NCBI RefSeq assembly: GCF_016026235.1
Contig: NZ_CP065613.1
Origin: Escherichia coli
GTDB lineage: Bacteria > Pseudomonadota > Gammaproteobacteria > Enterobacterales > Enterobacteriaceae
DNA: 64,000 bases
Reading direction: 5' to 3' (one strand)
Shown here: positions 45,086 through 51,100 of the stretch, one piece after another
How the letters are laid out: the number at the start of each line of letters is the position of its first letter
Numbering within the stretch: position 1 is the first letter of the stretch
Made by a program: the position numbers and the translations under genes
The notes under the pieces: model-generated
Seen by the model: only the letters and a program-made list of their open reading frames with translations
What the model was told of the DNA's origin: nothing
The model's database searches: none

Positions 45086-46767
45086 AAAGGGAGGCTTTAA
45101 AAGCCTTTTGAAGTTGGCAATATTAAGCCGCATGCCATCTCGACATGCGGCTTATACTGTTTACCAGCTATATTTCACTCCCAGCATGCCCTGAGTATCG
45201 CTATAGCCTTTATCACCTAGTTGCACACCGACATTCCCCCACAGGCTAAGGTTGTTATTTACTTTCGCCTCAACCCCGGTACGTACTTCACCGAGATTAC
45301 GCGCACCATCACGGCTTACGGTTTGACCATTCATCTTCACGGCGTAGACTTTGCTATTGTTGATCCAGTTCGCTTCAATGTAAGGCTGGAACTCACGCTG
45401 TTTACCATCGTCACGCTGGTGATGGCTATTCAGGTAGGTTTTCACCCCAAGTCGCGTTTGCACGTTTCCGTCGCCTTCCGTTTCAATGCGCGTTCCGTCT
45501 TTCCGGGCATGGTCAGAATCTTTCACACCCATCCAGGTGATTTGCGCCTGTGGCTGGACGTACCAGGTATTCAGCGTCCCTTCGCTGCCGCTACATGTTC
45601 CCGCTTCAAAGGTATACCCACCCTCAACAGAGGCCGTCACACCGCGAGAATCATAGTCGTCAGCAGAACGGTTATCGGAACTGACGCTGTTATCAAACCA
45701 GTTATACAGCGCCCAGCTGTCAACATAAGCGCCGGTCTTATTCGCATCGTTCTGATACCAGGTCGCGTACAGCCCAGCGCTGTAACCGCTGATGCGCCCA
45801 TCCGATTTATAACCCACACGATTACTCTGAGTATTACTGTGCTGATTGGCGTAGCCTGCCATCACGCCAAGATGCCAGCGATCCGGCGCGTTGCTACTCC
45901 ACTGCGCCAAATCGCCGCCTAGCTGCAATACATAGCGGTTAGCCTGAGTATTTAGCTGGCCGTCTCCGGCACTGGAACGTTCGTGCCCCCCGACATGACG
46001 CATCCACATACTGCTTGCTGAATCCTGAGAATGCAGTGAATCTGTATATTGCGGCTCACCCAGACGGTCGTGTAAGCGATGGCTAAACAGCGAGTTGGCT
46101 GCGGCAATGTTGCTGATATAGCTTCCGGCCTCCGGGCGATAAACTGATGGTCCTTCCGGATCCACAACAGGGGGATTATTGATGGGATCGGGTGTATCCG
46201 CTGGCGTTACGCCGTCCCATTTACTGGTCAGATACCAGTTTTTCTCGTCATTCCCCTTCCCTTTAGCCAGCGTGTAGACGTAAGCCCCAGCTTCGACAGT
46301 TCCGGTGGTCAGCGCGAAATTACCTGCAGAATTACCGCCAACCTCAATGAGTTCAATACCGTTGACCGTTTGCGCACCGACGCCGCCAATGTTATCAACC
46401 CGAACGCGAGTGTTCCCTTGGGTATCGCCTTTCACGTTCATCTTATCGGTGGGTGAATTATCGCCGCCCAGCGTCGCGTTGAACGTCATCAGGCCATTGT
46501 TTCCGGTATAGTTGCCGTTAACGGTCAGTACATTCCCCGGTTTTCCTCCTTCACTGTTCATTTGAACCGTGCCGCCATTCTCCAGGTTGCCGCCGATTGT
46601 GGTTTTAGCGACACGCAGTGTCCCCCCAGACATAACGTTCACATCACCTGCAGTGGTGACATTTCCCGACATCACACCGCTGTTATGGATATTAATGTGT
46701 TGACTTGCCGTATTAATGGCAGAGTCGGAACCGAAAGCAATTTCCCCGTTACTTTATTCGTACCCCT

Positions 46768-46773
46768 TATAAT
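46768..46773 (+). promoter_or_regulatory. TATAAT (-10 hexamer) 13 bp inside the left end of the IS110-family element
   Basis: Consensus hexamer oriented toward the recombinase ORF; no good -35 in the adjacent flank. Confidence 0.45.
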
Positions 46774-46974
46774 GGGGTGTTAGCCAGCCAGACCCGGCAT
46801 GATTACTGCCCCCAGTCGTCCATGATCCGGGGGGTGATGTCACCGGGTCTGGTGGGGCGCTGGTAACCGCTAATAGGGGTCAGGTCAGGCACTTTTGCCG
46901 GGACCGTCTGTAACGTGGATGCCGGTACCTGCTCCCCGTGGTTATCTGGTTAACCCATATACAAGGGAGACAGA

Positions 46975-48171: not shown

Positions 48172-48176
48172 CATGC

Positions 48177-48182
48177 TTGACA
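48177..48182 (+). promoter_or_regulatory. TTGACA (-35 hexamer) at the extreme right end of the IS110-family element, pointing outward
   Basis: Consensus hexamer 6 bp after the recombinase stop; with the 4-bp repeat and the first 13 bp of the left end it would lie 17 bp from TATAAT in a circular junction. Confidence 0.45.
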
Positions 48183-51100
48183 ACTTAATAGGGGCACCCC
48201 CCCACGATATCCGTCGTACCCTGATACGCCGAGGAATCGTTGTTAAGAGTCAGGATCCCGGTACCCAGTTTTGTCAAATCACCGCTACCGCTGATACTGT
48301 GCGTCATCGCCCAGCTACGCTCAGTGGAGATGGTGAGCAGGCCATTATTGATAACGGAAGCATCACCCAGGTTTTTCTGCTCGTTGACGCTGAGCGCGCT
48401 GCCTGTATCAATGTTGAATTGCCCCACAAAGCGGCTATTATCGCCATCCAGCTCTACATCTGTCCTGGCGGTTGCGCTCACGATACCCTTCCCGCTTATG
48501 CTATTACGCAGTTCGCCAGTCACGTTTTTTAGCGTTAACAGACCGTCATTGGCAATATTTCCTCTGCCTAACCCCTGCGTATTATCGAGGCTGACTTCCG
48601 CATTTGGGCTAACGCTGGTTAACGCATTGTAGCGTGCATTAAGCCCCTCGATAGCCAGCGTTCCCCCTGTAACATTCAGGTTTCCGCCACCTGTCAGTTC
48701 ACCCTGACTGATCCCACCTTTATTTACCGTCAGCGACCCTTCTTTGAACAAAACAGTCGAACCCATCTGCCCGGTGAATGTCTCTACCGTCTGCGTCGAT
48801 CCATTAAGATCGACGATGGCTGCGTTGCTGATGTTCAGTTCCCGGGTGTTGCCCAGCGCGCCATCCGCATCGGTACGTAATGTCCCCATCTGAACGTAGG
48901 TTGCCCCCTGATAGTCGTTCTGACCGTTGGAAAGCGAAACCTGTCGCACCGTATTGATTGCCAGATCCCCTTCACCGCCGATTTTTGCCGACATATCGGC
49001 CGTTGCGCCATAGGCTCCGCCATGTTCGGCTAACGTCAGCTTTTGCCCTCCATGGATGTTCAGCGCTTTCAGCCCATAGTTAACGTACAAACCATCACCT
49101 GGTGCGGTCGTGAGGCGGAATCCATAATCACCCTCGGCGACCACCGTTCCGTTTTGCGCAATGTGTAACGTTTTGTCCGCTTCCACCTCGTCGCCCTGTA
49201 AATCACGTAACGTTAATGAGCCACCCGACCCAATAACCGTTTGCGCCTTCACCAGTTGAACGCCGACATGGTTATCATCGTGTTCCAGCAAATTGAGCGT
49301 CGTCAGAGGGTTATTCGCCATGGGATCATTCCACGGTTTAGGCACGTCGATAAGCACGTCGCCCGTCCCGTTTACCTGATAGTTACGTCCTTTCCAGGTG
49401 TAGTCACCCGCGCCGACAACCAGCGTATCGACGCTGATATATCCCTCTGCAAGCGTCGCAGCAGGAATATCCGTATCGAAAATGAGCGTACCGCCATTCA
49501 TGGCCAGTCCACCAATGGATTGCTCTCCCACGTTTACCGATGTGGTATTTTCACTGTCAGACTGCAACATCGCGTGAGTAAGCGCAGCGGTGTTGTCGCG
49601 TTCCAGAGTGAAGGTACTGTCTTTCAGTTGGGCAACACCGGCGAATTCAGTCCCTGTTGCATGTGTAAAGCCAAACATCTTGTCGGAGGATGACAGCTGA
49701 ACTCGCATCAAGCCATCGCCTTTGAGCGCATTGGTCAGCGTGTAATCTCCTGCACTGTTCGTTGATGCGAGAATGTCGAGCGTACCGGGGCTTGCAATGG
49801 TTACTTCACTCGACCCCATGCCCGTTACCCCATCTGCCGTATGAGACGCAATGGTCAGGAGGCCGTCATTGACCAGCGTTTTACCGCTATAAGTATTCCC
49901 TGCATTGAACACCGTATGGCCTGCCGTCTTTATCGTCACCTGTAATCAGCATATCGACCTGGTAGCCGGCATCACTGTTATTAGTATGATTAAAGACAAA
50001 AACACCTTCGCCAGAGCCAAACTCTACTTTCGTCGCGTTGGTGATAAATCCGGCATCCGCCGCCGCCTCACCGTGAGCTGCACCAATGTTTAGCGTTCCT
50101 ACAGCAGGTTCAAAAACACCTAAGTAAACTTCTCCACCTTCGACATTCAGCGTGCCGCTATTCGTCAGGGTTAACGTACCCGTACCAGATGTCCCTACGT
50201 ACATATTGAATGTTTCAAGAAGAGAGTTCTGCCCATCCACTCTCACGTCGCCCTTGCTTTTGTCATTGAGAGCTATCTGTGTATCACGCGCTTTAACTAT
50301 ACCTCCGGTGGTAATATTCAGTTCACCCGTGCCTAATACACCGACCTGTGTCAATTGGGCGTTAGTAGATGATGTCTTTAAATTCCAGAGACTATCCGTT
50401 GAAATATTAACTATCCCCTTACCGGAGGCATTTCCTCCGATAAATCCATAGCCCGTTGAATTAAGGGTGGCACCATTACTGACATTTACGATACCGCTAC
50501 CAAAATTACCGACATTGATACCCACAGTATCGAACGATGATGTCGCATCCATCAGGTTCAGTGTGCCGATACCGCTTGCTTTATCGCCCAAAAAAGTAAT
50601 ATTTTGCGATACAAACTTACCGCCATCGCTAATATTGAGATTTCCGACGCCCGCAACACCAATGGTGGTATAGACATTCTTATTGACCTCCCATATCCCC
50701 CCCGTGGTGATGCTAACCTTCCCGACGCCGGTTTCTCCATAACCGAGAGAGCTTCCTCCGTTGCTGACAACAAGCCCCTCATTACTGATATTCATTTCGC
50801 CGTGGCCGTCATAACCAAGATTAGTTCCGAGATTAGTGATAACGGAGTTCTTATCCTTAACAGTAATGTTGCCTGTGCCTGTTTCTTTCATCCCCGCAGT
50901 GATAATTCCCGAATCTACTTTACCTTCACGCGAGACATTAAGTTCACCGTCGCCAGCATCACCGATATAGATATAGCGGAAAGCTTCGCCCGTTCCGAGG
51001 AAATTCCAATGCCCTTTATCGGTCACGTTGACGACACCGTGGGAACCGTCCTGAACGCCCACCAATGAATATTCTTTGTTATTAATTAGTCCATTATTGG

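Follow-up and report, generated by a model that had tools for sequence, protein, structure and literature searches.

For bridge-RNA recombinases of the IS110 family, such as that of IS621, the guide layout, the core and the handshake rules have been described (Durrant 2024, PMC11208160; Hiraizumi 2024, PMC11208158), and top-strand-only integration has been reported (10.1101/2025.10.25.684509). Homopolymeric G/C tracts within autotransporter genes are known from Neisseria meningitidis (PMC3723659), and the history of the ECSE_1600 autotransporter family, whose gene is commonly a pseudogene for reasons other than the one discussed here, is covered in PMC2608844. In the present work, we are concerned with a window of 64,000 nucleotides from Escherichia coli (NZ_CP065613.1, assembly GCF_016026235.1), in which an autotransporter gene of this family is interrupted by a mobile element. 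The explanation that we consider highly probable is that ISEc20 inserted into a C tract of yneO, and that the mobile unit is 1450 bp long and uses IS621-like guides; on this model, the tract may have comprised ten Cs (C10) prior to insertion.

Over the full element, the insert is 99.2–99.7% identical to copies annotated in RefSeq as “IS110-like element ISEc20”, which are found in 1119 genomes; judged by this alignment, it is an ordinary copy of an already known element, complete and apparently functional. Its recombinase matches the Pfam profiles DEDD_Tnp_IS110 (PF01548; N-terminal, RuvC-like; residues 14–168, full profile, E = 5.6e-48) and Transposase_20 (PF02371; Tnp, C-terminal; residues 277–358, E = 7.1e-22). 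Terminal inverted repeats were not found when the first 40 nt were compared with the reverse complement of the last 40 nt, where the best ungapped match (14/36) is at chance level. The insert combines the features by which the IS110 family is recognised, namely the DEDD domain, the Tnp domain, the lack of inverted repeats and sequence-specific insertion. In the literature search, ISEc20 came up only in incidental listings, and nothing relevant was found on IS110 elements in connection with homopolymers or poly-C. ISEc20 is annotated in the same autotransporter tract of EC22, SMN152SH1, SMN197SH3 and 2014C-3011, where the recombinase also has 398 aa; the present copy is distinguished by its own flanks (C4 and AC-C6) and by a host allele with two further private lesions, and otherwise by nothing substantive.

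The ends of ISEc20 were set from empty sites and from copies whose left flanks comprise 33, and whose right flanks 24, distinct sequences; they are identical across unrelated contexts. The element starts with GTTAC (46748) and ends with ...AATAGGGGCAC (48197), its body GTTAC...AATAGGGGC spanning 46748–48195, followed by A(C) at 48196–48197. We infer that this AC is the core contributed by the element and does not belong to the target, of which positions 46746–46747 would constitute the core CC. All 33 distinct left flanks end in a run of C4–C8, for which the chance of finding CCCC throughout is approximately 1e-82, while the right flanks open with AC or CC and continue as a run of Cs (C[A]C...). 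Relatives with 70–81% amino acid identity from two phyla (Burkholderiales, Actinobacteria) show the same junctions, CCCC/GTTAC and GGGGCA/CCCC, and conserve GCTTGAC[AG]...CATAGGG[GA]C at the right end. The features of the locus are compiled in Table 1.

Table 1. Features of the ISEc20 insertion and of the interrupted autotransporter gene (positions refer to the window).
Feature	Position	Strand	Basis or remarks
ISEc20 mobile unit, 1450 bp	46748..48197	+	Copies at other loci and empty sites
Non-coding left end, 227 nt	46748..46974	+	-10-like TACTTT at 46750-46755; putative bridge-type RNA, by analogy
Left ACTT copy	46751..46754	+	Element-internal (left-end bases 4-7); overlaps the -10-like hexamer
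Predicted target-binding domain	46787..46853	+	Stem 46787-46803 paired with 46839-46853
Predicted left target guide CUGCCCCC	46806-46813	+	Identical to left flank
Predicted right target guide CGGGGGG	46828-46834	+	Complementary to right flank; UG next at 46835-46836
Predicted donor-binding domain	46855..46936	+	Stem 46855-46870 paired with 46921-46936
Predicted left donor guide AUAGGGGU	46873-46880	+	Matches right end
Predicted right donor guide GUAAC-GU	46910-46916	+	GG next at 46917-46918
Recombinase (transposase) gene, 398 aa, intact	46975..48171	+	Pfam; length as in RefSeq ISEc20 CDS
Short right end	48172..48195	+	Conserved -35-like TTGACA at 48177-48182; terminal AATAGGGGC
Right ACTT copy	48183..48186	+	Element-internal; directly 3' of the -35-like TTGACA
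Left flanking C4 run, end of target's left half	46744..46747		Empty alleles; 33 left flanks
Right flanking C6 run, target's right half, then ACGATATCCG of the gene	48198..48203		Sequence; empty alleles
Second C6 tract, ~120 bp off in the same gene	46622..46627		Secondary ISEc20 recombination site in other strains
3' part of ECSE_1600-family (yneO/ydeK-ydeU) autotransporter pseudogene	45161..46747	-	Autochaperone, pertactin and beta-barrel domains
5' part of the same pseudogene	48198..52080	-	Start codon 52078-52080

Uninterrupted alleles of the host gene in A30 and K-12 read GCAATTT-C8-ACGATATCCG and encode DIVGGEIAFGS, the C tract corresponding to a G tract on the coding strand with the codons GGG GGG of ...DIVGGEI.... 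Other empty alleles carry C7 (in an O157:H7 strain) or CACCACTC (in strain 88-3493), and IS-free alleles with C9 and C10 exist, which are annotated as frameshifted. Empty alleles have one continuous C tract at the insertion site, and in comparison with empty sites nothing is duplicated apart from Cs; by this comparison, ISEc20 makes no classical target duplication and its insertion is strictly site-specific. Strains SMN152SH1 and 2014C-3011 carry ISEc20 with its left junction at the second C6 tract and its right junction at the main tract. Long or interrupted tracts were also seen, comprising C20 and C63 at IS-free target sites, C13–C47 beside right ends, and A-interrupted “empty” alleles.

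A sequence-only reading of the locus had interpreted the ACTT pair as the repeat at the insertion site. The sequence facts listed in it are all correct according to direct reading and mechanical translation: the two copies are spaced by 1432 bp; the upstream minus-strand ORF (48185..49939) stops at a TAA equivalent to plus-strand TTA at 48185–48187; the downstream frame is open from 46753, the blocking stop being plus-strand TTA at 46754–46756; and, while removal of 1432 bp leads to a stop, removal of 46752–48185 (1434 bp) yields the open frame ...DIVGGCPYYNGEIAFGS.... The interpretation does not hold, however. Both copies are contained in ISEc20, 4 and 12 bases inside its ends, in the context GTTACTTTATT at the left and GACAACTTAATAGGGGCA at the right end, and they recur at identical internal positions in all ISEc20 copies, whatever the flank; the relatives do not conserve them, their left end showing GTTACTAT or GTTACCTT and their right end TTGACGAAACACATAGG. 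Given that two random 24-nt windows of this region have a 4-mer in common 76% of the time, so that such sharing is expected by chance, and that both copies are element-internal, the pair could not be confirmed as meaningful. Alignment of the flanks to uninterrupted alleles, a check put forward in the same reading, gave empty sites that agree with neither of its two reconstructions. A 4-bp ACTT target-site duplication in a gene whose frame had previously been broken at that point has virtually no likelihood left: the copies do exist, but the empty alleles contain no ACTT and lack the element-end bases beyond the pair, of which there are 3 on the left side and 10 on the right, and IS110-family elements make no such duplications (PMC11208160, PMC11208158). 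Next to no credence can be given to the second reconstruction either, which took the 1434 bp as the insert and ...DIVGGCPYYNGEIAFGS... as the ancestral protein. Although that deletion does open the frame, CPYYN is encoded by no uninterrupted allele, with the intact 1806-aa allele and K-12 both reading as given above, and the extra CPYYN codons are ISEc20 end sequence which is found at unrelated loci. Both reconstructions are, thus, refuted by the empty-site alleles. In suspecting offset boundaries, that reading was right in general terms, yet the ends are 46748 and 48196/48197, and the excision proposed for it is wrong.

By analogy with IS621, the left end is predicted to encode a bridge RNA with two internal loops. 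Its fold has a z-score of -3.0, and in an alignment of 39 sequences, 96.6% of the cells in the stems are paired, versus 31–50% when the partners are slid; compensatory changes occur in 16 pairs, and the observed values are reached by 0 of 500 shuffles. In helix 1 of the putative target domain, pairing reaches 99% and 7 pairs show compensatory changes, as many as in helix 2 of the donor domain. A scan of 46600–48300 against Rfam (E <= 1) returned no family. The candidate left donor guide is identical to the terminal 8-mer of the right end in 52 loci and in three haplotypes, with a U-for-C wobble, while the right donor guide, when read as its reverse complement ACGTTAC, corresponds to the core AC plus the GTTAC at the start of the left end; both this guide and GTTAC are invariant. 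On the target side, poly-C guides accompany poly-C flanks in approximately 70 loci. A re-targeted relative (L160) carries the guides GACGCUC and UUGAGAG, which match its flanks ACGCTC and CTCTCA, so that both target guides and both flanks have changed concordantly, in one independent switch only; the handshake prediction of GC in its donor loop was not borne out, the loop having GG as in the others. At the first core position, the element would have A and the targets C or T; the second position, C, is common to both. The proposed AC core finds no counterpart in the left donor guide, and the crossover point is hidden by the homopolymer.

Following the IS621 scheme, the target loop would read the poly-C target and the donor loop the joined ends of the element itself, and the recombinase would exchange strands just 3' of the 2-nt core, for which the element would supply AC and the target CC. 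On excision, a circle with the junction RE-AC-LE would re-create a promoter; joined in silico, this junction reads TTGACA-N17-TACTTT, and N18-TACTAT in the Burkholderia relatives. The promoter becomes apparent only with the ends joined in this way, a promoter and terminator scan of the integrated element showing nothing in the left end, and none of the fetched loci contained a circle or tandem RE-LE junction. The guide-optimal target would be approximately C10 and the mobile unit 1450 bp. In this lineage, the tract struck would have been C4 + C6 = C10, which departs from the frame of C8 by two bases, with the flanks split into 4 + 6 Cs versus a guide-optimal 5 + 5.

The length of 1450 bp is supported by three lines of evidence, namely four junctions (L026, L063, L109, L137) that read RE-AC-GTTAC, with a single C, and then continue into unrelated DNA, the promoter spacing of 17 obtained with an AC junction, and the book-keeping of tract lengths. 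The latter fits EC22 (5 + 3 = C8), rtcB (11 vs. 11) and the L022 site (10 vs. 10), and is off by one base at the L005-type site. The rtcB empty site is C4-A-C6, its A missing from the occupied allele. Empty sites of the L022 and L005 types exist but carry substitutions (ACAAC-Cn versus CCCCC in the occupied alleles) and, therefore, give length information only. At three loci (L063, L030, L048), the flanks were never contiguous in 5426 E. coli genomes and no empty site was found, indicating that these copies sit at rearrangement junctions. Two other cores were considered and set aside, a 3-nt CCC or CNC core and a CA core in all four guides. The reasons were that the RE-AC-GTTAC junctions have a single C, that CA is absent from all left junctions, and that relatives have either A or U directly behind the left target guide.

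The unit might also be 1449 bp long (GTTAC...GGGGCA) and have entered an in-frame C8 with a 3-nt CCC duplication, in which case the net gain of 1452 bp (3 x 484) would imply that the gene was in frame at this site before insertion. The window itself agrees with this reading, given that its 4 + 7 = 11 Cs equal 8 + 3, that the insertion accounts for exactly 1452 additional bases when aligned to the intact allele, and that removing either 1449 or 1452 bp reads through in frame; a 3-nt overlap would also be compatible with the CTC that the L160 flanks have in common. We nevertheless regard it as unlikely, since the non-C right junctions of L026, L063, L109 and L137 show one C after CA (RE-CA-C-GTTAC), a CCC junction would lengthen the spacer of the circle promoter to 19–20, and the book-keeping fails for EC22 (which would be C6), rtcB (9 vs. 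11) and the L022 site (8 vs. 10). A possible account, although not the one we would choose, is that the run lengths of 4 and 6–7 are uninformative on the pre-insertion state, owing to slippage in a dead gene once the element was in place, or to homopolymer mis-calls in this assembly. IS-free alleles do range from C7 to C10, occupied alleles differ among themselves (5 + 4 in EC22, 6 on the right in SMN152SH1, the A lost in 2014C-3011), and extreme tracts of C20 and C63 occur at other sites. However, the L005-type site, which is the most sampled one, has C5 / CA-C6 as flanks in at least 9 independent metagenome contigs, arguing that flanks are fairly stable once formed.

Returning to the 1450-bp unit, precise removal would leave C10, two bases out of frame, and the frame would probably not be restored. 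In this respect the sequence-only reading was probably right, but the cause would lie in the length of the homopolymer, through prior expansion or later slippage, and not in ACTT. Its suggestion of a frame break that preceded the insertion is mildly favoured, with C10 against an in-frame C8 and with IS-free C10 and C9 alleles being annotated as frameshifted. This C10 may be what the element met, if the tract lengths have not slipped after insertion and are not mis-called; the exact crossover point is not readable from a homopolymer.

The host gene is an ortholog of the 1806-aa autotransporter, with synteny as in K-12 (hipBA-yneO-lsrK), and contains the Pfam domains Autotransporter, AC_1 and Pertactin. 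Its 3' part is 99.2% identical to the intact A30 allele, and nucleotide identity to that allele is 98.8–99.2%. Alignment to the intact 5421-nt allele reveals a 17-bp deletion between 49923 and 49924; the 5' part has an ORF break at 49887–49939 and an exact 64-bp tandem duplication (51907–51970 / 51971–52034). Judged by these lesions, the gene is inactivated independently of ISEc20, by the 17-bp deletion and the 64-bp tandem duplication. The deletion was found in no complete RefSeq genome, nor was the closest IS-free relative found, the best match being A30 (99.0%).

The main worth of this result is the correction, the element itself being ordinary and known. For annotation purposes, an intact ISEc20 lies here in an ECSE_1600/yneO autotransporter pseudogene with threefold damage. 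More generally, short direct repeats near the ends of IS110-family elements are not to be equated with target duplications, and the boundaries of such elements should be determined by comparison with empty sites or across many copies. Of minor value is a concrete, if analogy-based, assignment of guides and target for an E. coli-native bridge-type recombinase that is predicted to recognise C homopolymers, and the naturally re-targeted relative may be of use in surveys of the natural target ranges of bridge recombinases. That ISEc20 and its relatives in Proteobacteria and Actinobacteria specialise on long C homopolymers and remodel them is rather improbable. If it were true, such elements would preferentially strike tracts that are already expanded, register-shifted recombination might remodel or expand C tracts, for which the long and A-interrupted tracts described above would be candidate traces, ISEc20-type elements would cause adjacent deletions at secondary C tracts, and an RNA-guided recombinase would be linked to the dynamics of homopolymeric (contingency-type) tracts.

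Among the known systems, NalP and MspA of N. meningitidis share with the present gene a G/C homopolymer in an autotransporter coding sequence that differs in length between isolates, here from C7 to C10, and thereby switches the frame; unlike in these, no sign of regulated or reversible phase variation was found in E. coli here, a tract of C8 is short, and assembly errors may underlie some of the length calls. With classical DDE insertion sequences, ISEc20 has in common that a transposase gene interrupts a host gene, but it is without inverted repeats and target duplication, is strictly site-specific, and carries its ACTT internally. From IS621, it differs in that the target is a C homopolymer of approximately ten residues and not a REP element, the core is probably xC (element AC, targets CC or TC) instead of CT, the core lies outside the left donor guide, and the predicted RNA has no match in Rfam. 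In common with IS621 and other bridge-RNA IS110 recombinases, ISEc20 has the DEDD/RuvC-like and Tnp domains, ends of unequal length (left long, right short) without inverted repeats, and a predicted two-loop left-end RNA in which the left guide represents the top strand and the right guide its complement; two bases 3' of the right guides would fit the other partner in a handshake, and a -35 element in the right end would meet a -10 element of the left end in the circle modelled in silico.

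The insert in the ECSE_1600-family autotransporter gene is ISEc20, a catalogued element of the IS110 family. Its DNA is 99.2–99.7% identical to RefSeq elements designated "IS110-like element ISEc20", and its 398-aa ORF contains both recombinase domains of that family, DEDD_Tnp_IS110 (5.6e-48) and Transposase_20 (7.1e-22). Near-full-length copies are present in 1119 of 5426 complete E. coli genomes, in four of these within the same autotransporter gene. Comparison of the two ends with each other revealed no inverted repeats. All 33 distinct left flanks, compiled from E. coli loci and from a metagenome scan with the element's first 30 bases, end in C4–C8, with C5 being the commonest, and right flanks start with C-A-Cn, or with Cn in variants where C replaces the A; the chance of such C flanks arising from composition alone is ~1e-82. 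At the level of sequence, ISEc20 has what is expected of an IS110-family element. A solo remnant, reduced to the left end's first 61 nt and always preceded by the same flank (...CCCTGCGTGAAGCCCC), is widespread at one site (loci L017, L018, L023, L024 and L029, and ~20 more metagenome contigs).

A sequence-only reading of the region had taken a 4-bp ACTT repeat as the insertion site. All that it described is in the sequence: the two copies lie at a distance of 1432 bp, the upstream frame ends in TAA, the downstream frame is open from 46753, and deletion of 46752-48185 yields ...DIVGGCPYYNGEIAFGS.... The upstream frame belongs to the minus-strand ORF 48185..49939, and the downstream one opens behind a TAA at 46754-46756. 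As an insertion repeat, however, ACTT is uninformative, because a 4-mer is common to two random 24-nt windows of the region in 76% of cases. ISEc20 copies from unrelated contexts, including an island adjoining an AlpA-type regulator, an ETEC CFA/I plasmid and the rtcB gene, have the same internal ACTTs and identical ends, and the tetramers are not conserved in the elements of relatives with 70–81% identical recombinases. Both proposed reconstructions, an ACTT-bounded insert and the 46752-48185 excision, are refuted: neither ACTT nor the CPYYN codons occur in any uninterrupted allele, which is the outcome named beforehand as refuting. The boundaries are truly offset, as had been considered, but not at the proposed positions, and ACTT is irrelevant to them; the observation was accurate and its interpretation only partly right.

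Features of the ISEc20 insertion and of its host gene, in window coordinates
Feature	Sequence	Position	Remark
Second C6 tract		46622-46627	~120 bp from insertion site
Gene sequence breaks off	...GCAATTTCCCC	46747	
Insert start	GTTACTTTATTCG	46748	
Left ACTT	ACTT	46751-46754	bases 4-7 of ISEc20 left end
Loop element 1	CUGCCCCC	46806-46813	matches poly-C flank
Loop element 2	CGGGGGG-UG	46828-46836	matches poly-C flank
Loop element 3	AUAGGGGU	46873-46880	equals right-end terminal 8 bases
Loop element 4	GUAAC-GU-GG	46910-46918	complementary to AC+GTTAC
Recombinase ORF		46975-48171	
Right ACTT	ACTT	48183-48186	10-13 bases from right end
Stop of upstream ORF	TAA (plus-strand TTA)	48185-48187	
Insert end	...CTTGACAACTTAATAGGGGCA	48196	
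Gene sequence restarts	C run, then ACGATATCCG	48197-48203 (C run)	
ORF break		49887-49939	due to 17-bp deletion
17-bp deletion	AAAAGTGATCCATGATG	between 49923 and 49924	
Other C7 run of the gene		50697-50703	identical to intact allele
64-bp tandem duplication		51907-52034	exact; ~46 nt into coding sequence
Start codon		52078-52080	minus strand

Empty sites were identified by searching the complete E. coli genomes with the flanks joined, which gave more than 4000 uninterrupted alleles. Strain A30, in which the gene is intact, and K-12 share the empty allele GCAATTT-CCCCCCCC-ACGATATCCG, and the in-frame protein across the tract reads DIVGGEIAFGS. Among 57 full-length matches from an evenly spread sample, the tract comprises 8 bases in 48, 7 in 4 and 9 in 5. 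Empty alleles with C7 (an O157:H7 strain), C9 (CFS3273) and C10 (E105) are all annotated as frameshifted, and a divergent one, CACCACTC, occurs in strain 88-3493. Length polymorphism of the tract (C7–C10) is seen in IS-free genomes (L001, L003, L084, L168-L170), with non-C8 alleles annotated as frameshifted, and O157:H7 strains have both C7 and C8 alleles.

Since the crossover point is hidden by the homopolymer, the core and the length of the mobile unit have to be inferred. The junctions, the cases of RE-AC-GTTAC (RE and LE, right and left end), the promoter spacing and the book-keeping of lengths favour a unit of 1450 bp with a 2-nt core that would be AC on the side of the element and CC, or TC, on that of the target, the cuts probably falling immediately 5' of GTTAC and 3' of AC. 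GGGGC-AC-flank is found at every right junction. At four independent junctions (L026, L063, L109, L137), RE-AC-GTTAC is followed by unrelated DNA, which is best explained by recombination of a right junction with a left-junction-like site; in keeping with this, no other genome has the two L063 flanks side by side. In the IS110 family, a promoter is rebuilt across the joined ends of the excised circle (PMC11208160), and a RE-AC-LE circle formed in silico contains TTGACA-N17-TACTTT, with N18-TACTAT in Burkholderia relatives. With a 1450-bp unit, the circle junction would read ...AATAGGGGC-AC-GTTACTTT..., and additional Cs would spoil the promoter spacing. A 1449-bp unit that inserted into C8 with duplication of CCC accounts for the 1452 extra bases of the window, but it fails at the junctions, at the circle promoter and in the book-keeping of other insertions. 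For these, 1450 bp agrees with the same tract in EC22 (5+3 = C8), with rtcB (11 vs 11) and with the L022 site (10 vs 10), and is one base off at the L005-type site.

The two gene halves share their phase in window coordinates and, therefore, removal of any multiple of 3 (1434, 1449 or 1452 bp) reads through. Removal of the preferred 1450-bp unit leaves ATTT-C10-ACG, reading DIVGGGKLLSV... with a stop soon after; on this model, the frame would stay broken after precise excision. The tract of this lineage would either have been C10 already at the element's arrival or have slipped later. A C10 allele does exist in E105, and the predicted guides would pair best with ~C10; the odds that the tract was out of frame before insertion are roughly even. 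Flank configurations differ by strain (window 4/AC-C6, EC22 5/AC-C3, SMN152SH1 right flank AC-C5), and a flank divergence of ~2.4% suggests that ISEc20 entered this tract independently at least twice.

The host gene (K-12 yneO; O157 Sakai ydeK/ydeU) is located between hipBA and lsrK. Some strains have an intact copy, encoding an autotransporter of 1806 aa; in many others the gene is truncated or missing (PMC2608844), and it is commonly a pseudogene. Aligned with the intact allele of 5421 nt, the window copy shows a 17-bp deletion, carried by no IS-free genome among the complete E. coli genomes searched, and a 64-bp duplication shifting the frame in the signal-peptide region, of which EC22, SMN152SH1, 2014C-3011, A30 and K-12 have a single copy. 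Neither lesion is present in K-12 or in the other alleles that carry ISEc20. Given these two further lesions, frame restoration at the insertion site would be without functional consequence.

ISEc20 copies often lie at rearrangement junctions. The flanks of three copies (L030, L048, L063) are never contiguous in the 5426 genomes, the right flank GGGATTCC... occurs together with three different left flanks, and the left flank of L078/L079 together with two right flanks. In SMN152SH1 and 2014C-3011, the second C6 tract forms the left junction (L014, L015 ~6004) and the main tract the right one, amounting to an IS-adjacent deletion of ~120 bp between the two C tracts; in 2014C-3011, the A after GGGGC is also missing. 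Two unrelated target sites read CA-ACAAC-C6/7 when IS-free (L011, L165, L166) and CA-CCCCC/IS/AC-C5 when occupied (L005/L025, L022), and in rtcB the empty site is C4-A-C6, while the occupied allele is without that A; these differences are not explained by simple conservative recombination. Very long C tracts, which could be real expansions or assembly artefacts, lie precisely at ISEc20-type sites: C63 in the IS-free rtcB gene of strain Z1323PEC0008 (L010 351-413), C20 at the AlpA-island site of Z0117EC0056 (L012 354-373), C47 adjoining the right end in a relative from Georgenia thermotolerans (L155 2407-2453) and C13 in two other relatives (L104 2415-2427, L135 2433-2445).

IS110-family elements encode a bridge RNA in their long left end. 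Its left guides read as the top strand of the left half-sites and its right guides as the complement of the right ones, the 2-nt core being included (PMC11208160). Top-strand cuts fall just 3' of the core, whose first position is flexible, and two "handshake" bases lying 3' of each right guide form pairs with the partner DNA once strands have been exchanged (PMC11208158); integration is reported to be mainly top-strand in a recent preprint (10.1101/2025.10.25.684509). Fold prediction divides the ISEc20 left end into two domains. In an alignment of 39 left ends, the two outer stems have strong support, with 96.6% of cells paired, vs 31–50% with partners slid, and compensatory changes in 16 pairs, values that were reached by 0 of 500 shuffles. 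Loop element 3 equals the right end's terminal 8 bases in 52 loci and follows them through three haplotypes (ATAGGGGC, ATAGGGAC, ATAGAGGC), with U instead of C at positions where this would make a G.U pair to the bottom strand. Rfam contains no model matching this left end; its predicted fold and loops (see table) are those of a putative bridge RNA.

Recombinases 70–81% identical to that of ISEc20 occur in Burkholderiales and Actinobacteria (Microbacteriaceae, Arthrobacter and others), in elements that start CCCC/GTTAC[CT]NT and end GCTTGAC[AG]...CATAGGG[GA]CA/CCCC... (slash, junction). Across the relatives L085-L164, ends, loop sequences and poly-C flanks are conserved, with one target specificity across phyla. 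The only relative with differing target loops, GACGCUC and UUGAGAG, is L160, on a 1473-nt contig of Arthrobacter sp. S39; its flanks, ACGCTC/GTTAC... on the left and ...GGGACA/CTCTCA... on the right, mark it as an apparently naturally re-targeted relative. Under the bridge-RNA rule, all four pairings include an identical core; that of ISEc20 would be AC on the element's side and CC or TC at its targets, which does not clearly follow this rule.
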